A stretch of DNA of 64,000 nucleotides from Desulfovirgula sp. (GTDB taxonomy: Bacteria > Bacillota > Desulfotomaculia > Desulfotomaculales > Nap2-2B). A model generated the notes under the pieces. The model ran no database searches and was not told where the DNA came from. It saw only the letters and a program-made list of their open reading frames with translations. Made by a program: the position numbers and the translations under genes. Position 1 is the stretch's first letter. The number at the start of each line of letters is the position of its first letter. Below are positions 3,641 to 26,750 of the stretch, in pieces. The stretch spans positions 921 to 64,920 of the forward strand of contig DYES01000072.1 of assembly GCA_020725585.1 (NCBI GenBank). The letters run 5' to 3'.

Positions 3641-4073
3641 GATCATTTCCCAAAGGCAGGTGCAGACCCAAAAGGAACTGGCCCTGGCCCTGCAGGCACA
3701 AGGGCTCAAAGCCACCCAGGCCACCATTTCCCGTGACATCAAAGAACTGGGTCTGATCAAAGCGCCGACTGGAAACAACGCGGCGTGCTACATCTTGCCG
3801 GAGGCTCCCCGGTCATTATACCGCGAGGAGCGTTTGAAAAGGGCGTTTAAGGATTCTGTTGTTTCGTTTGATTACAGCGAAAATCTGATCGTTTTAAAGA
3901 CTCTTCCGGGAGAAGCACAGGGAGTAGCTTGTGCTCTCGACCACGCCAATTTGACGGGAATTATCGGCACGGTCGCTGGAGACGACACTATTTTAGCCGT
4001 TGTCAAACCGAAAAAATATGTGTCCAGGCTTTTGAAGCGTTTTCACCAGCTGATTAATCAAAAGCCAGGCTAA
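3609..4073 (+). CDS. argR: Arginine repressor ArgR/AhrC
   Basis: N-terminal winged-helix 'RQKKILEIISQRQVQTQKELALALQAQGLKATQATISRDIKELGL'; typical ~150-aa length; overlaps the nadK 3' end. Confidence 0.9.
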   Translation: MKVQRQKKILEIISQRQVQTQKELALALQAQGLKATQATISRDIKELGLIKAPTGNNAACYILPEAPRSLYREERLKRAFKDSVVSFDYSENLIVLKTLPGEAQGVACALDHANLTGIIGTVAGDDTILAVVKPKKYVSRLLKRFHQLINQKPG

Positions 4074-19737: not shown

Positions 19738-20859
19738 ATGACAGTTGATATTTTCCTGAATCTGACGGGGCGCGGTTACCACATCTATATCGGCCCCGGA
19801 TTAGTCGGCAGGCTGGGCGCCTACCTGAAAGGTTTACCTTTAAGCGCGAAGGCGCTGCTGGTAACAAATCCAAAGGTGCGCGTGCTTTACGGCGCCCTCG
19901 CGGAAAAAAGCCTTCTTTGCGCCGGTTTTCAGGTGGTTACCGCCGAAGTACCCGATGGCGAGGAGGCAAAAAGCCTGTCCAGCGCAGAAAAACTTTACGA
20001 CCTGGCCTACACCGGCGGACTCGACCGAAAATCTCCCGTGATCGCCTTAGGTGGTGGGGTAGTTGGCGATCTCGCCGGTTTTGTAGCGGCCACTTACATG
20101 CGCGGAGTTCCTTTCGTCCAGGTGCCCACCACCCTGCTTGCCCAGGTGGACAGCAGCGTGGGCGGCAAGGTGGCGGTAAACCACCCCCGCGGGAAAAATA
20201 TCATCGGCGCCTTTTACCAGCCCAGGCTCGTCGTGGCCGATACGGACACGCTGGCCACGCTTGACCCGCACGAGCTGAGATCGGGTCTGGCCGAGGTGAT
20301 CAAATACGGCGTGATTGCCGATGCCGGCTTTTTTGCCTGGCTGGAGAGTAATTTGGAAAATCTTCTTGCCTTGGAACCGGAAGCCCTGGTTCACGCCGTG
20401 GCCACATCCTGCCGGATCAAGGCGCGGGTGGTGGAAGAAGACGAGACTGAACAGGGACGCCGGGCCATCCTCAACTTCGGCCACACCGTCGGCCACGCCC
20501 TGGAGGCCCTCTCCGGCTACAGGGTCTTTCGCCACGGCGAGGCGGTGGCCATCGGGATGGTGGCAGAAGCGAGGCTGGCCGAGGCAATGGGCATTTTTCC
20601 GGAAGAAGATGCGGCCCGCCTCGAGCTCCTCGTGAAAAGGGCGGGGCTGCCGGCTGGAGTTCCCCCCGCACTCTCCGCCGCGCCCACAACCGCCCGAACC
20701 GGCGAATTTTTAGAACTCCTGCAGCGGGACAAAAAGGCGCGGGCCGGCAGATACGCCTTTGCCCTGCCGGTTAAAATCGGGCGGGCGGAAGTTTTTCGGG
20801 ATGTGTCGGAAGAGAAAATCAGGCAGTACATATTGGAAAATCTATCGCTTGACATATGA
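19738..20859 (+). CDS. aroB: 3-dehydroquinate synthase
   Basis: 'GGGVVGDLAGFVAATYMRGVPFVQVPTTLLAQVDSSVGGK', 'NFGHTVGHALE'. Confidence 0.93.
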   Translation: MTVDIFLNLTGRGYHIYIGPGLVGRLGAYLKGLPLSAKALLVTNPKVRVLYGALAEKSLLCAGFQVVTAEVPDGEEAKSLSSAEKLYDLAYTGGLDRKSPVIALGGGVVGDLAGFVAATYMRGVPFVQVPTTLLAQVDSSVGGKVAVNHPRGKNIIGAFYQPRLVVADTDTLATLDPHELRSGLAEVIKYGVIADAGFFAWLESNLENLLALEPEALVHAVATSCRIKARVVEEDETEQGRRAILNFGHTVGHALEALSGYRVFRHGEAVAIGMVAEARLAEAMGIFPEEDAARLELLVKRAGLPAGVPPALSAAPTTARTGEFLELLQRDKKARAGRYAFALPVKIGRAEVFRDVSEEKIRQYILENLSLDI

Positions 20860-20898
20860 CATATATAACGGGTATACTTTTCCTGAGGTGGTCCTGCA

Positions 20899-21126
20899 AT
20901 GAGAAAGACGATGGTCTACCTGGAAAATGACCAGTTTCTTATGTTAAAAAAAGCGGCGGCTTCTTCTAAAAAGAAGGTTTCGGAAATTATCCGCGAAGCT
21001 ATAGCAAATTACCTGAAAGATAAAAATAAAGTAGACTACTTTTCGTTTGTGGGTATTGCCGAAGGGCCTAGGAATGGCAGAACATCAGAGGAAGCGGAGG
21101 TTGTGCTCCGGGAGGTCCTGCGTTGA
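20899..21126 (+). CDS. vapB: Ribbon-helix-helix (CopG/VapB-type) antitoxin
   Basis: 75 aa, RHH-like 'MVYLENDQFLMLKKAAASSKKKVSEIIREAIANYL'; 4-nt overlap with the downstream PIN gene. Confidence 0.75.
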   Translation: MRKTMVYLENDQFLMLKKAAASSKKKVSEIIREAIANYLKDKNKVDYFSFVGIAEGPRNGRTSEEAEVVLREVLR

Positions 21127-21539
21127 TCTTTTTCGATACCGGCGCAATCTATGCCCTGATCGATAAAAACGACGTTAATCACAAACAAGCTAAAGAACTT
21201 TATAAAAACCTGGCGGGTAAAGAAGTTCTCTGCACTTCGCTCCCCGTTCTTACCGAAGCGTATTTACTGATTGACGCCCGGCTCGGTAATTACTTTGCCA
21301 ACCGGCTGTGGAAAGGGATCTGCGACGGCGTCCTTGAAATCTTGCCTGTCGAAAGCGAAGAATTAAAAATGGCCTTAGAGATTGAAAGCAAGTACGGCGA
21401 TATCGGCTTTGGGTTCGTAGACGCCACATGTTTTGCCCTCTGTGAAAAATACAAAATCCGCCGGGTTTTTACATATGACAAAAAACATTTTTCCATCTAC
21501 AAACCTGGCTTCACTGACGCACTGGAACTACTTCCATAG
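21123..21539 (+). CDS. vapC: PIN-domain ribonuclease toxin VapC
   Basis: 'IFFDTGAIYALIDKND' (first acidic residue), later conserved E/D positions ('LTEAY', 'FVDATCF'); 138 aa. Confidence 0.8.
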   Translation: MIFFDTGAIYALIDKNDVNHKQAKELYKNLAGKEVLCTSLPVLTEAYLLIDARLGNYFANRLWKGICDGVLEILPVESEELKMALEIESKYGDIGFGFVDATCFALCEKYKIRRVFTYDKKHFSIYKPGFTDALELLP

Positions 21540-21614: not shown

Positions 21615-23336
21615 ATGCGGGGTTGGTTCCGTTTGAACGGCAAACAAGGTTACCGAAAGCGATTGGGCGACCTGCTGGTAGACGCCGGTTTGATCAACGC
21701 CGCTCAGCTGCAGCAGGCTCTCCAGGTGCAGCGGCAAACCGGCGAGCGCCTGGGCCGGGTGCTGGTTAACCTGGGGTTTGTTACCGAGCAGGATATTTTA
21801 AACACTCTGGAAATGCAGTTGGGCATTCCCCAGATTACCTTGGCGGACAAGTTAAATATCCAGCTGGTCAGAAGTATCCCGGAGGCCATCCTGCGCCGGC
21901 ACAAGGTAGTGCCCGTAAAAAGAGAAGGCAACCGCCTGATGGTCGCCATGAGCGACCCCTTGAACGTGGTGGCCATCGACGACCTGCGCCTGGCGACGGG
22001 ACTGGAAATCGATCCTGTGCTGGCCAGGGAGCAGGAGATCGACAGCGCGCTCCAGAAAGCCTTCACCCTTTCCAGCTTAGAAAAGGCCTTCGCCGAAATG
22101 CCGGACGAGCCGGAGGCCGTAGAATTGCAGGCTTTAGACTTAACCCCGGACAGTGCCGGAGGGGCCGAGGCCCCCGTTATCCGCCTGGTTAATTCGCTGA
22201 TTGCTCAGGCCGTAAACGACAAGGCCAGCGATATCCATATCGAGCCCCAGGAAAAGAAAGTGCTGGTGCGCTTCCGGCAGGACGGCCTGTTGCGGGAAAT
22301 AATGACCCTTTCCCACCAGACCCGCCTGCCCCTCGTCTCGCGGATAAAAATAATGGCCGGAATGGACATTGCCGAAAAACGCCTCCCCCAGGACGGGCGC
22401 ATCCAGATTAAATTTGCCGGGCGTAATATCGACCTGCGGGTTTCCAGCATGCCGACCGTTTTCGGAGAAAAAATCGTCCTGCGCATTTTAGATAAAAGCA
22501 CCAGCATTTTGCCTATCGAAGAACTGGGTTTTGACGATTATAATTTCAACCGCTTTTTAAGCCTTCTCCGCCACGCTTACGGAATGGTGCTGATCACTGG
22601 GCCCACCGGAAGCGGGAAGACCACCACCCTGTACGCCGTGTTGAATAAGCTGCGTTCTCCCGAACGAAACATAGTAACTATTGAGGATCCCGTGGAGTAC
22701 CTTTTAGAAGGTATTAATCAAACGCAGGTAAATGTAAAGGCGGGCCTTACTTTTGCTTCCGGGCTGCGCTCGATTTTACGCCAGGATCCGGACGTGATTA
22801 TGGTGGGAGAAATCCGCGACCACGAAACGGCGGAGATCGCCGTGCGCGCGGCTTCCACGGGGCACCTCGTGCTGAGCACCCTGCATACGAACGACGCCGC
22901 CGGAGCCCTGACCAGGCTTATCGACATGGGTGTAGAGCCGTTTCTGGTGGCTTCCTCGGTACTGGGGGTAGTGGCCCAGCGCCTGGTCCGGGTGCTTTGC
23001 CCGCACTGCCGGCAGGAATACCGGCCCGCCCCCGACACCGTGGAAAGAATATTCATGGGCGCCGCCCCGGCGGACGACGTAACCCTGTACGCTCCCGGCA
23101 GGTGCGCCCGCTGCGACCAGACCGGCTACCGGGGGCGGATCAGCATCCAGGAGGTGCTCAACGTTACGGGAAGCATCCGCAGTTTAATCAACCAAAAGCG
23201 CCCCGCCGGCGAAATCAAGCGCCAGGCAATCAAAGAAGGGATGGTAACCCTGCAGCAGGACGGGATCAACAAGGCCCGGCGCGGCGTGACAAGCATCCAG
23301 GAAGTCATGCGCGTGGCCTACAGTGAAGAAAGATAG
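21615..23336 (+). CDS. pilB: Type IV pilus assembly ATPase PilB (GspE family)
   Basis: N-terminal T2SSE_N repeat ('LGDLLVDAGLINAAQLQQALQVQ'), Walker A 'GPTGSGKTTT', tetracysteine CPHC...CARC motif. Confidence 0.93.
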   Translation: MRGWFRLNGKQGYRKRLGDLLVDAGLINAAQLQQALQVQRQTGERLGRVLVNLGFVTEQDILNTLEMQLGIPQITLADKLNIQLVRSIPEAILRRHKVVPVKREGNRLMVAMSDPLNVVAIDDLRLATGLEIDPVLAREQEIDSALQKAFTLSSLEKAFAEMPDEPEAVELQALDLTPDSAGGAEAPVIRLVNSLIAQAVNDKASDIHIEPQEKKVLVRFRQDGLLREIMTLSHQTRLPLVSRIKIMAGMDIAEKRLPQDGRIQIKFAGRNIDLRVSSMPTVFGEKIVLRILDKSTSILPIEELGFDDYNFNRFLSLLRHAYGMVLITGPTGSGKTTTLYAVLNKLRSPERNIVTIEDPVEYLLEGINQTQVNVKAGLTFASGLRSILRQDPDVIMVGEIRDHETAEIAVRAASTGHLVLSTLHTNDAAGALTRLIDMGVEPFLVASSVLGVVAQRLVRVLCPHCRQEYRPAPDTVERIFMGAAPADDVTLYAPGRCARCDQTGYRGRISIQEVLNVTGSIRSLINQKRPAGEIKRQAIKEGMVTLQQDGINKARRGVTSIQEVMRVAYSEER

Positions 23337-23353: not shown

Positions 23354-24457
23354 ATGAGCTCAGTAGATTCCCGGACCTTAATAAAACTCGCCTTTCAAAT
23401 CGGCGCCTCGGATATTCATTTAACTACCGGCTTTCCCCCGGCCTTTCGCCTGCACGGGGAGTTGCTCCCGGCCAGTGCCCTGGCGGCCCGGGGCGTCCTG
23501 GATATTGCGGATCCGGCCCCTTTGCAGCCGGCCGACACCGATCGTCTGGCGCGGGAAATAATGAACGAAGAACAGTACGCCCGGTTGCTCGAAAAAGGAG
23601 AGTACGACTTTTCTATCTCCCTGCCCGGGACCGGCCGCTGCCGGGTAAACGCTTTCAAGCAACGCGGCTCGGTAGCCCTGGCCATCCGCCCCGTTTCCGA
23701 CCAGATTCCCTCCCTGGAACAGTTAGGGCTTCCGGAGTCCGTCAAATACCTGGCCCGCCGCCCGCGCGGCCTTGTCCTGGTCACCGGCCCCACCGGGAGC
23801 GGTAAATCCACTACGCTGGCGGCCATGATCGACCTGCTCAACAGTGAGCGGCACTGCCACATTATCACCCTGGAAGACCCCATCGAGTACATCCATCAGC
23901 ACAAAAAAAGTATCGTTAACCAGCGCGAAATCGGCCGGGACAGCCTTTCCTTTGCCAGCGCCTTGCGCGCCGCCATGCGCGAAGACCCGGACGTAATTTT
24001 AGTGGGGGAAATGCGCGACCTGGAAACCATCGCCACCGCCATCACCGCCGCGGAGACCGGCCACCTGGTGCTGGCCACGCTGCACACCAGCAGCGCCGCG
24101 CAAACCATCGACCGCATCGTCGACGTTTTTCCTCCCCACCAGCAGCAGCAGATCAGGCTGCAGCTGGCCGGTTCTCTGCAGGGGGTCATCGCGCAGCAGC
24201 TGCTCCCCCGCCGGGACCGCCCGGGACGGGTGGCGGCGGTGGAAATCATGATCGCCACGCCGGCAATCAGCAACCTGATCCGTGAAGGGAAAACCTACCA
24301 GATTATTTCCCAAATTCAAACAGGCGCCAGGTACGGCATGCAGACGATGGATACGGCCCTGCGCAACCTCTACCGGGCGGGAGCAATCGGGCGCGAAGAG
24401 GCGCTTGGCTGCTCCGCCGATCCCGAAGGCCTGTCCAGGATGCTTGATAACTTTTAA
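23354..24457 (+). CDS. pilT: Type IV pilus retraction ATPase PilT
   Basis: 'GASDIHLTTG', Walker A 'GPTGSGKSTT', 'ILVGEMRDLETI', 'GHLVLATLHT'. Confidence 0.92.
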   Translation: MSSVDSRTLIKLAFQIGASDIHLTTGFPPAFRLHGELLPASALAARGVLDIADPAPLQPADTDRLAREIMNEEQYARLLEKGEYDFSISLPGTGRCRVNAFKQRGSVALAIRPVSDQIPSLEQLGLPESVKYLARRPRGLVLVTGPTGSGKSTTLAAMIDLLNSERHCHIITLEDPIEYIHQHKKSIVNQREIGRDSLSFASALRAAMREDPDVILVGEMRDLETIATAITAAETGHLVLATLHTSSAAQTIDRIVDVFPPHQQQQIRLQLAGSLQGVIAQQLLPRRDRPGRVAAVEIMIATPAISNLIREGKTYQIISQIQTGARYGMQTMDTALRNLYRAGAIGREEALGCSADPEGLSRMLDNF

Positions 24458-24476
24458 TAGATTTTTAAAAAATATG

Positions 24477-24505
24477 TTGCATTTTGTTTTGTTAACAGGT
24501 ATAAT
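24477..24505 (+). promoter_or_regulatory. Sigma-A promoter internal to the pilus locus (TTGCAT-17 nt-TATAAT)
   Basis: TTGCAT at 24477-24482, exactly 17-nt spacer, perfect TATAAT at 24500-24505, 20 nt after the pilT stop. Confidence 0.7.
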
Positions 24506-24535
24506 TACACCTGAATTAAACAGGGGAAATTTTCT

Positions 24536-24700
24536 CCATAAAAGGCAACTCCTTAAGGCGAAAGCCAGGAGGCGCAAAGCCACGGGCCTAAAGCCCGGCA
24601 CTCACTAAAAAGCTGCTGTTTTAGTGGCAGCTGATCCCATGCAGGTGGTCGACAAGCAATCTTAACTGCGTGGTCTGCTTAAGTGAGTGCCGGGTATGGC
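24536..24700 (+). promoter_or_regulatory. c-di-GMP-I (GEMM-I) riboswitch aptamer with an enlarged second helix
   Basis: 'AAAGGCAACUCCUUAAGGCGAAAGCCAGGAGGCGCAAAGCCACGGGCCUAAAGCCCGG' reproduces the GEMM-I signature: GGCAA(A), a GAAA-capped hairpin, GnCGCAAAGCC, CGGGCCUAAA. A 13-bp stem CCCGGCACUCACU/AGUGAGUGCCGGG closes a ~76-nt insertion. A flanking CCAU/AUGG helix closes the aptamer. Confidence 0.8.
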
Positions 24701-24712
24701 AGGCGGGCTGCT

Positions 24713-24754
24713 GGAGGCATGTTTTCGGTAAAGAAGCGTGCCTTTTCATTTTTT
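24713..24754 (+). terminator. Intrinsic terminator forming the riboswitch expression platform
   Basis: GGAGGCAUG...CGUGCCUUU stem followed by UCAUUUUUU. The 5' arm abuts the 3' side of the aptamer. The pilC SD and ATG follow within 20 nt. Confidence 0.6.
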
Positions 24755-24769
24755 GAAGGCGGCGGGAGA

Positions 24770-25984
24770 ATGGCAGGCTTTTTTTACCGGGCGAGGAACA
24801 AAGAGGGAAAGCTGGTCACCGGTTACCTGGAAGCAGAAGGACAGGCGGCGGCGGCGGTCGCCCTGCGCCGCAGCAACTACGTAATCATCGAGATCCGCCC
24901 CGCGCCGGACAAATCCCGGCTGGTTAACCTGTCCCAACTTTTCGAGCCGCGCGTAAGCGTAAAGGAGCTGGCCCTGTTCTGCCGCCAGTTCGCCACCATG
25001 CTGGGGGCGGGGGTGCCCATCTTAAACTGCCTGCATGTCTTAAGCCAGCAGGCCGGCACTAAAAAGCTGCGCCAGACCGTCAGGGCAATCTCCGACCAGC
25101 TTCAAGGGGGAGCCACATTAACCGAGGCAACGAAAATGTTCCCCCGCGTTTTTCCGCCTGTTTTCGTCAGCATGGTAGAAGCGGGGGAAGTGGGCGGCGT
25201 CCTGGAGCAGGTGCTGGAAAACCTGGCCACCCATTTTGAGAAGGAGCACGAATTAAAGGAAAAGATTAAATCCGCCATGATTTACCCGGTGACGCTGGTC
25301 AGCTTTGCAATCCTGGTGGTAGCAGTACTTACCACTTTCGTGCTTCAAAAATTTATCAACCTGTTCTTCAACCTGGGCATCCCCCTGCCGCTGCCGACGC
25401 GCATCTTGATTACGCTCAGCGATCTTGCGCGGCGTTATCTGTTTTTAGGCGCGGCGGGCGCAGCAGCATTTTCAGTTGTTATGTTATGGCTGCTTCGCTC
25501 CGGGCGCAGGCTGGCGTGGGTGGACAAAGTATTTCTCAAGCTTCCCGTTTTCGGCCAGCTCGTCCAAAAAATCATCATCGCCCGCTTTACCCGTACGCTG
25601 GGAATTTTGCTCAAGAGCGGAATACCGGTTATTCGCGCTTTGGAGGTGGTGAAGAACACTGCCGGCAATATTCTCGTCGTGCGGACAGTAGAAAAAGTGA
25701 TCGAGGACGTCCGGCAGGGGCAGGCGATCGCCCGTTCCCTGGGTGAAAACGGCGTTTTTACCCCCATGGTGGTGCAAATGGTCTCCGTGGGGGAAGAAAC
25801 GGGCAGTCTCGACAAAATGCTCGAAAAGGTTGCCGTCTTTTACGAGCGCGAGGTGGACGCCAGCGTCGGCCGGCTGGCCGCAATGATCGAGCCCGTCTTG
25901 ATCATCGGAATGGGGGTGGTGGTCGGGTTTATTGTGATCGCAATTCTTCTCCCGTATTTTCAGATGTTCGGAGGCATTATGTAG
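24770..25984 (+). CDS. pilC: Type IV pilus platform protein PilC (GspF family)
   Basis: Two GspF repeats ('FCRQFATMLGAGVPIL', 'FTRTLGILLKSGIPVI'). ATG 24770 gives the canonical 'MAGFFYRARNKEGKLVTG' N-terminus; the ORF-track GTG 24683 lies inside the riboswitch. Confidence 0.9.
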   Translation: MAGFFYRARNKEGKLVTGYLEAEGQAAAAVALRRSNYVIIEIRPAPDKSRLVNLSQLFEPRVSVKELALFCRQFATMLGAGVPILNCLHVLSQQAGTKKLRQTVRAISDQLQGGATLTEATKMFPRVFPPVFVSMVEAGEVGGVLEQVLENLATHFEKEHELKEKIKSAMIYPVTLVSFAILVVAVLTTFVLQKFINLFFNLGIPLPLPTRILITLSDLARRYLFLGAAGAAAFSVVMLWLLRSGRRLAWVDKVFLKLPVFGQLVQKIIIARFTRTLGILLKSGIPVIRALEVVKNTAGNILVVRTVEKVIEDVRQGQAIARSLGENGVFTPMVVQMVSVGEETGSLDKMLEKVAVFYEREVDASVGRLAAMIEPVLIIGMGVVVGFIVIAILLPYFQMFGGIM

Positions 25985-26089: not shown

Positions 26090-26530
26090 ATGCGGAAAAA
26101 GCAAAAGAATGAGCGCGGTTTCACCCTGGTGGAGCTTATGGTGGTCATTGCCATCATCGGCGTCCTCGTGGCTATTGCTCTGCCCAAGTTTATGAACCAG
26201 GCAAACAAGGCGAAAATTGCCAGTGCCCAGGCTACCCTCGCTAGCATGAAGACTTCTATAGAGGTGTATTATGCTGACACCAAAAACAACAAGTACCCTG
26301 CTAATGCGACAGAAGTAACCAGCGTGCTAGAGGATGACGGCTTTGCTTCAAACACAGTGGACCCGTGGGGTAACAAGTTTAAATACTGGGTAGATACAAA
26401 TAGGAAAAGTTATTATTTATGGTCGGTAGGGCCTGATGATACAACTAATACTAACGACGATGTATACGTAACCGAGTCCCTTCCTCCGACTATAGGGGCT
26501 GTAGATAAAACAGGGACTGATATATTCTAA
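26090..26530 (+). CDS. pilA: Major type IV pilin (GspG-like pseudopilin fold)
   Basis: Prepilin leader plus 'G|FTLVELMVVIAIIGVLVAIALP'; GspG-type 'DPWGNKFKY...SVGPDD'. C-terminal two-thirds visibly AT-richer than neighbouring genes. Confidence 0.9.
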   Translation: MRKKQKNERGFTLVELMVVIAIIGVLVAIALPKFMNQANKAKIASAQATLASMKTSIEVYYADTKNNKYPANATEVTSVLEDDGFASNTVDPWGNKFKYWVDTNRKSYYLWSVGPDDTTNTNDDVYVTESLPPTIGAVDKTGTDIF

Positions 26531-26724
26531 CTTTAACCTCCCCCAGGGGTAACGGCGATTTAAACGAAACCTAGAGTGGTGGTAACAGTGTTACAAGATT
26601 TGAGCAGGCTCTTCCCTCGTCGGTTGGGCCAGTTGTTGAAGGTAGAACATAGTAAATAATTTCCGGTGTGGAACGAGAGTGCGGCTAATGAACAGCAATA
26701 ACCTGAGTTATCAACGAAATGGTA

Positions 26725-26750
26725 CGGCGCGGGATTGCCGCGCCGTTTTT
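26725..26750 (+). terminator. Rho-independent terminator ~195 nt downstream of pilA
   Basis: CGGCGCGG-gattg-CCGCGCCG perfect 8-bp GC stem followed by TTTTT. Confidence 0.85.

Follow-up and report, generated by a model that had tools for sequence, protein, structure and literature searches.

Riboswitches that sense cyclic dinucleotides are found upstream of type IV pilus genes in several bacteria. In Clostridioides difficile, the class II cyclic di-GMP (c-di-GMP) riboswitch Cdi2_4 is located upstream of pilA1 and reportedly has an ON logic. GEMM elements upstream of pulF, which belongs to the PilC/GspF family, and of pilM, pilO, and pilQ were tabulated in 2007 in the first GEMM paper (PMC1950547). 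The GEMM-I-type switch in the pilus locus of Geobacter metallireducens, positioned before pilM, senses 3',3'-cyclic GMP-AMP (cGAMP) and turns transcription ON, with a terminator that competes with the aptamer 3' strand and cannot coexist with the aptamer; in the OFF switch Cd1 of C. difficile the aptamer and terminator coexist (PMC9262584). Here, a predicted c-di-GMP-I (GEMM-I) riboswitch is described from a type IV pilus locus of Desulfovirgula sp. (contig DYES01000072.1). The whole stretch of 64,000 nt that was analysed is called the window, and coordinates are given for its plus strand. The riboswitch is positioned in the 312-nt spacer between the pilT stop codon, which ends at 24457, and the pilC ATG at 24770.

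The element in the pilT–pilC spacer shares with RF01051 members such as Vc2 of Vibrio cholerae and Cd1 the two hairpins, the AAA linker, the GAAA tetraloop, and a receptor-like motif, together with G, A, and C at the three contact positions and a site in the 5' untranslated region that is followed by an intrinsic terminator. In contrast to Vc2 and Cd1, the apex of its helix P2 carries a three-way-junction expansion of about 87 nt. Helix P1a is 4 nt longer than in the RF01051 consensus, and the core sequence is GGCGC instead of GACGC. The expression platform looks ON-type, unlike that of Cd1. The Geobacter pilM switch has the same GEMM-I fold in a type IV pilus locus, and the window element is predicted to be ON by the same logic. 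However, the Geobacter switch recognizes cGAMP and precedes pilM, whereas the window element has the G of c-di-GMP binders at position 24544, precedes pilC, and overlaps its terminator by only 4–6 nt. Cdi2_4 is a functional analogue, in which c-di-GMP regulates the type IV pilus genes of a Gram-positive anaerobe, but it belongs to class II (RF01786) and is located before a pilin gene, whereas the window element is of class I and is located before pilC.

An earlier note on this DNA considered a class I switch with an expanded P2 before pilC to be a distinct architecture. This view is contradicted by the known GEMM elements before pulF (PMC1950547), by the Geobacter pilM switch (PMC9262584), and by a wider sample of 87 pilus loci, for which an nhmmer profile of the aptamer 5' half was among the searches. 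Locus L002, from an unrelated lineage, contains a GEMM-I element of canonical length in the same pilT–pilC spacer (positions 3690–3900 of that locus), with its own promoter and terminator. Four Bacillota relatives have canonical-length GEMM-I elements between pilC and the pilin gene (L009, 5304–5450; L016, 5360–5560; L023, 5255–5400; L079, 5346–5530). These five elements score 64–85 bits, and each is followed by a terminator-like hairpin, but their leaders cannot be aligned with that of the window outside the aptamer core. The control of pilus genes by such a switch is already known; the window element stands out by the size of its P2 expansion and by the presence/absence polymorphism of that expansion.

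Class and structure of the aptamer

The Rfam model RF01051 (c-di-GMP-I) matches positions 24534–24715 of the plus strand with 38.9 bits, compared to a gathering score of 35. The E-value of the match is 4.4e-4 for the whole window, and the best clan member reaches 1.2e-6 in a local scan. RF01051 is the only Rfam family above threshold in the window. The match spans the full length of the model, and 96 nt at the P2 apex are counted as an insertion. The class II model RF01786 has no match on 24440–24800 at E ≤ 10 and none at its gathering score in the whole window, which agrees with the earlier assignment of the element to class I and not class II. The c-di-GMP-I-GGC variant RF03167 reaches 34.7 bits, short of its gathering score of 59, and A24576, at the A47-equivalent position, is the base of canonical c-di-GMP-I and not the G of the variant. 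The aptamer sequence quoted in the earlier note runs from 24541 on, and the Vc2-type strings that it regarded as diagnostic of c-di-GMP-I are located where it placed them, but their letters had been given only approximately: the sequence contains GGCAAC and not GGCAAA, GGCGCAAAGCC and not GACGCAAAGCC, and CGGGCCUAAA and not CCGGCCUAAA.

The aptamer (24534–24716) is supported by compensatory pairs in two of its helices, P1a and P2. Helix P1 is formed by CUCCA (24534–24538) and UGGAG (24712–24716), as placed by the Rfam alignment and the sequence. The Rfam alignment also defines the hairpin P1a (24545–24575), with the GAAA loop at 24560–24563, and P2 (24578–24709). The linker between the two hairpins is AAA (24576–24578), as is virtually always the case in GEMM elements (Weinberg 2007, PMC1950547). 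P2 contains a receptor-like motif, CCUAAAG/UAUGG (24587–24593 and 24695–24699), that resembles the 11-nt receptor but has one extra base, which is A, U, or C among the orthologues. The GAAA tetraloop is predicted to dock on this motif. About half of the RF01051 members have this form with a GNRA tetraloop and a receptor. The positions predicted from the Rfam alignment to contact the ligand are G24544, A24576, and C24711, which we take to be equivalent to G20, A47, and C92 of the published Vc2 structures. G rather than A at the first contact position separates c-di-GMP binders from cGAMP binders (PMC9262584). Specificity for cGAMP is unlikely because the selectivity position 24544 is G.

Conservation in orthologous leaders

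Seven orthologous pilT–pilC spacers were recovered and aligned with that of the window from the −35 element to the pilC ATG, which resulted in a comparison set of eight leaders. The PilC proteins are 93% (L082), 92% (L001), 81% (L083), 76% (L084), and 76% (L085) identical to that of the window, and the PilT proteins of L086 and L087 are 91% and 84% identical. The window, L082, L086, and L001 are referred to as the close clade. The lineage is uncultured, its members are labelled "Desulfotomaculales bacterium" by the sources, and the next PilC relatives are at most 53% identical. The contig of L001 (JAIMBK010000027.1) is labelled Armatimonadota, in contrast to the Desulfotomaculales label of the other close relatives, and either mis-binning of the contig or a wrong label on the metagenome-assembled genome may account for this.

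The same riboswitch is present in the same spacer of all eight orthologous loci, which is more than can be attributed to chance. The RF01051-family scores of L001, L082, L084, and L085 are 37.5–44.8 bits. Covariation in the orthologous spacers, which the earlier note had suggested examining, bears out the fold. RNAalifold analysis of the eight leaders identified two-sided changes in P1a, at alignment columns 84/102 (CG to UA) and 86/100, and in P2, at column 113/242, where the pair is CG in four leaders, UA in three, and UG in one. P1 is invariant in all eight and hence uninformative for covariation. Within the close clade, 79/80 to 81/81 positions of the aptamer 3' half and platform are identical, compared to 0.76–0.94 of the fourfold-degenerate sites of pilT and pilC. 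Between the window and L083, the corresponding values are 75/80 and 0.64. The aptamer and platform are far better preserved than synonymous sites, indicating that they constitute a functional element and not a relic. The spacer very probably contains a genuine c-di-GMP-I riboswitch, as judged from these sequence comparisons, and c-di-GMP is its expected ligand.

Terminator and predicted switching mechanism

The terminator scan identified a 13-pair hairpin (24713–24745) and a U tract, UCAUUUUUU, which together resemble an intrinsic terminator (24713–24754). The hairpin is conserved in all eight leaders and directly abuts the aptamer, as described in the earlier note. The 5' arm of the terminator (24713–24725) starts inside the 3' strand of P1 (UGGAG, 24712–24716, extendable to G24717), and the two overlap at 24713–24717. 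In the unconstrained minimum free energy (MFE) structure of the window leader, a hairpin named P0 (24523–24537), formed by GGGGAA and UUCUCC with a duplex energy of −5.7 kcal/mol, sequesters the 5' strand of P1. P0 is only loosely conserved in the relatives, and its role in sequestering P1 is suggested by the folding models.

The unconstrained MFE structures of six orthologues contain the full terminator and no P1 in every case. When P1 is stabilized by −10 kcal/mol, its probability changes from approximately zero to approximately one, and the lowest three to four pairs of the terminator are lost. In the window, the first core G–C pair of the terminator is also lost. The energy of the window hairpin decreases in magnitude from −14.7 kcal/mol for the full stem to −7.8 kcal/mol in the presence of a 5-bp P1 and −4.4 kcal/mol in the presence of a 6-bp P1. 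The corresponding changes are from −17.5 to −4.0 kcal/mol in L087 (8-bp P1) and from −20.4 to −1.4 kcal/mol in L084 (9-bp P1). Folding with and without P1, as proposed in the earlier note, reveals competition between P1 and the base of the terminator; the upper hairpin persists, and the ON direction is favoured but unproven. P1 directly adjoins the terminator, which leaves the 3' strand of P1 unable to form an OFF-type antiterminator. The lack of such an antiterminator, together with the predicted termination already in the apo state, makes ON the coherent reading.

In the proposed mechanism, the internal promoter at 24477–24505 would initiate a leader of approximately 260 nt, which read-through transcription from pilT may also enter. 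The leader would fold into the two-hairpin GEMM-I aptamer, with the GAAA tetraloop docked on the receptor-like motif of P2. In the absence of ligand, P0 would hold the 5' strand of P1, the 13-bp terminator would form down to its base, and transcription would stop before pilC. When c-di-GMP is bound, P1 (CUCCA/UGGAG, extendable to UCUCCA/UGGAGG) would form, and the lowest 3–5 bp of the terminator would be lost. The loss of the terminator base would reduce termination and enable transcription of pilC and the pilin gene, which is the behaviour of an ON switch. The ON mechanism would need either the extension of P1 through weak U–G pairs or termination that depends strongly on the lowest pairs of the stem. 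c-di-GMP would promote pilus assembly at the RNA level and, via the MshEN domain of PilB, at the protein level. It is likely from the modelling that the switch acts through the terminator, and an ON direction is somewhat more probable than OFF.

Expansion of the P2 apex

P2 includes 13 perfect base pairs, 24594–24606 with 24682–24694, which enclose 75 nt. The earlier note had described this perfect stem, with its 3' arm off by one base. The lineage-specific expansion of about 87 nt (24602–24688), corresponding to the 96-nt Rfam insertion, consists of an extended stem and two hairpins, H1 (24611–24632) and H2 (24637–24673), according to the predicted fold. The expansion folds by itself, with an energy of −48.5 kcal/mol and a z-score of −5.5. 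It is present in five of the eight leaders (window, L001, L082, L083, and L086, the last with a 6-nt deletion in hairpin 2). In the remaining three, L084, L085, and L087, P2 ends in a short loop. The expanded P2 reported in the earlier note is thus real, but it does not define the switch. "Variable-length stems of P2" had already been stated in the 2007 GEMM description (PMC1950547).

L083 and L087 share 95.8% identity over 1.5 kb and, outside the apex, 211/211 leader positions, but only L083 has the expansion. The expansion is therefore polymorphic at about the species level and is not required for the conserved leader. L087 and L085 have similar short apices (GGCAC-CCGG-GTGCC in L087), from which it follows that L083 probably gained the expansion. 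Within the close clade, the identity of the expansion is 0.86–0.98, which is about the neutral rate, no better than synonymous sites. Base pairing is preserved in the five carriers, with 97% of the outer stem, 83% of hairpin 1, and 95% of hairpin 2 paired. However, covariation within the expansion is not significant among the five carriers, as 302 of 500 shuffles reach the observed score.

Searches for related sequences provided no indication of a wider distribution of the expansion. A scan at E ≤ 10 returned no Rfam family within the expansion, and blastn-short identified no second copy in the 64-kb window or the 87 loci. A blastn search of a plasmid collection returned no copy of the expansion, only one 29-nt chance match with an E-value of 0.8. 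The sole metagenome match of the insertion core, GATCCCATGCAGGTGGTCGAC, in L081, was dismissed as chance, as it lies inside a GC-rich coding region. A leader peptide in the expansion (ATG 24639, MQVVDKQS*) was also rejected: its start and stop are unconserved in L082 and L083, and it has no Shine–Dalgarno sequence.

The fourfold-site identity between the window and L001 is 0.76 in pilT, 0.68 in the promoter region, and 0.90 in pilC, which points to a recombination breakpoint within or close to the leader. In such a mosaic locus, homologous recombination is sufficient to explain the patchy distribution of the expansion. The expansion is probably a neutral passenger, derived and self-contained, on a structurally free apex, and appears to be dispensable.

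Alternative explanations

Two observations weigh against the ON mechanism. With a minimal 5-bp P1, the 9–10-bp upper part of the terminator hairpin and its U residues persist with a probability of 0.6–0.98, and the ligand-bound state might still terminate transcription; furthermore, P0 is poorly conserved in L085. It is conceivable, though unlikely, that a genuine aptamer is coupled to an OFF-type switch or to an output other than the terminator, with the residual hairpin terminating transcription with or without ligand. Such a switch might raise termination, or it might affect ribosome access or RNA stability. The persistence of the upper hairpin pairs with P1 stabilized speaks for this possibility. 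An effect on ribosome access could be mediated by the P1 5' strand UCUCC, which is complementary to GGAGA at 24765–24769. In addition, RNAalifold pairs the aptamer 3' junction GCUGCU (24708–24713, including the presumed C92 equivalent) with GGCGGC (24757–24762), shortly before the ribosome-binding region of pilC. The partner in L085 is GGCAGU, and all six pairs are kept by one-sided changes. The GCUGCU/GGCGGC pairing may represent a second, translational layer of control or chance. About 25 nt lie between P1 and the terminator of L002, and inspection of the sequence indicates complementarity of its terminator 5' arm to the 3' strand of P2, an OFF-like arrangement opposite to that of the window. 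However, no apo-state pairing that would serve as an antiterminator can be drawn, and all apo MFE structures already hold the full terminator, so that nothing is left to be turned off. An antiterminator made of AAAAGGCA in the aptamer and UGCCUUUU in the terminator 3' arm is kinetically implausible and was rejected, as the local 5' arm competes and the motifs are generic. The long-range pairings with the Shine–Dalgarno region comprise only 4–6 bp across more than 200 nt. Moreover, activation of pilus genes by c-di-GMP fits the presence of MshEN on PilB.

Some Rfam scores also count against the proposed model. The score of the window is only just above the gathering score, the insertion-bearing L083 and L086 reach approximately 32–34 bits on the sister model in a permissive scan, and L083 has no match at the gathering threshold. 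Such borderline values, with two orthologues below the gathering score, would be in line with a decaying, non-functional riboswitch relic broken by the insertion. Nevertheless, a relic is extremely improbable: the aptamer core and platform are 94–100% conserved, compared to 64–90% for synonymous sites, helix changes are compensatory, and all predicted ligand-contact positions are intact. The low scores of L083, L086, and the window are explained by the penalty for the large P2 insertion, since the short-P2 orthologues L084, L085, and L087 score 42–45 bits on Rfam models. The expansion itself could be a functional second three-way junction that binds a ligand or protein, or a small site-specific mobile element, similar to a MITE or PATE, that inserts at the P2 apical loop. 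This is improbable, although less so than a relic. The very stable self-contained fold and the apparent gain by L083 relative to the short apices of L087 and L085 are compatible with a functional or mobile expansion. The junction strands AAAAA, CUGAUCCC, and UGGUCUGCUU are invariant in the five carriers, whereas the hairpin tips vary or have the 6-nt deletion, and terminal inverted repeats are suggested by the ends of the expansion (TCACTAA...TTAAGTGA). The expansion is 0.79–0.84 identical between the two clades, compared to 0.57–0.70 for fourfold sites, which counts against a purely neutral passenger and could reflect some constraint and not only later transfer. In contrast, the searches of the window, the 87 loci, and the plasmid collection yielded no second copy, neither an internal Rfam family nor significant covariation was found, and the expansion drifts near-neutrally within the close clade. 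Close relatives without it keep an otherwise identical leader, and recombination in the mosaic locus can account for its patchy distribution. The complete model, of a functional class I switch with a terminator-based ON mechanism and a passenger expansion, is considered likely.

Promoter and extent of the transcription unit

The leader is preceded by a sigma-A-type promoter composed of TTGCAT (24477–24482), a 17-nt spacer, and TATAAT (24500–24505). The −10 element is perfect, and in the eight leaders TTG and TATA.T are invariant and their spacing is fixed, whereas the DNA upstream of the −35 element is not conserved. The promoter predicted in the earlier note is therefore present, but its description as near-consensus is too strong for the −35 element, which agrees with TTGACA at only three of six positions. 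The same low agreement explains why the promoter is missing from the output of the consensus scanner. Transcription is predicted to start near 24512.

The earlier note also proposed that the promoter splits the locus, with pilB and pilT transcribed separately. A terminator scan of the spacer found no terminator between the pilT stop codon and the promoter, and read-through from pilT into the leader is therefore equally possible; the separate transcription of pilB–pilT is not established. The probable downstream boundary is a strong terminator-like hairpin (26724–26746), located about 190 nt past the pilin stop codon and ahead of the prepilin peptidase gene, with a 9-bp stem that includes eight G–C pairs and is followed by TTTTTCC. 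Because of this hairpin, the riboswitch-gated unit is probably mainly pilC–pilA, and expression of pilD through pilO would require read-through. The proposed gating of pilC–pilA–pilD, the minor pilins, and pilMNO was overstated in this respect. No feature was assigned to the segment 26531–26720, between the pilin gene and the hairpin.

Organization of the pilus locus

The genes flanking the riboswitch are those named in the earlier note, as indicated by Pfam matches. The extension ATPase gene pilB (21615–23336) encodes a T2SSE domain (480 bits) and an N-terminal MshEN domain (71 bits). The latter contains two intact 24-residue c-di-GMP-binding motifs, residues 16–39 and 45–68, spaced by five residues, as determined by comparison with the published MshEN consensus (PMC11731258). 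The pilus locus is thus predicted to respond to c-di-GMP through a protein as well as through the riboswitch, and the intact motifs fit c-di-GMP as a positive signal for the pilus. The retraction ATPase gene pilT (23354–24457) matches T2SSE, and its homologues are labelled PilT by the sources. The platform protein gene pilC (24770–25984) belongs to the T2SSF family (219.7 bits) and is followed by the type IV pilin gene pilA (26090–26530; N_methyl and T2SSG). Genes for the prepilin peptidase (pilD), minor pilins, a PilX_N protein, pilM, pilN, and pilO are located 3' of the pilin gene. The plus strand carries pilB, pilT, pilC, pilA, the leader elements, and the hairpin at 26724–26746.

The pilC ATG is preceded by a purine-rich ribosome-binding region (24755–24772, including the ATG). 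PilC homologues of 404–407 amino acids begin with MAGFFYRA, which corresponds to the ATG at 24770. The in-frame GTG at 24683 listed as the pilC start in the open reading frame track is an artefact of the gene caller, as the earlier note had suspected.

Upstream of pilB, a pair of genes encoding RHH and PIN domains, similar to VapBC toxin–antitoxin systems, occupies positions 20899–21539, between aroB (19738–20859) and pilB. The orthologues L085 and L086 have only approximately 70–100 nt between aroB and pilB, without the VapBC-like pair, indicating that the pair is an insertion in the lineage of the window. A near-consensus promoter-like site, TTGACA-18 nt-TATACT, is located at 20849–20878.

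Implications

The analysis corrects the annotation of the locus, in which pilC starts at 24770 and the leader upstream of it is a regulatory RNA. It reveals no new regulatory principle. P2 expansions can push true riboswitches below Rfam thresholds, as two of the five insertion-bearing orthologues are under the gathering score. The near-identical leaders with and without the expansion of about 87 nt constitute a natural experiment on the tolerance of GEMM-I riboswitches to extra structure. If the expansion were functional or mobile, it would be a transferable RNA module moved between lineages, as exemplified by its apparent gain in L083 relative to the 96%-identical sister L087. For the uncultured thermophilic Desulfotomaculales lineage, the prediction is that c-di-GMP would drive pilus production at two levels.

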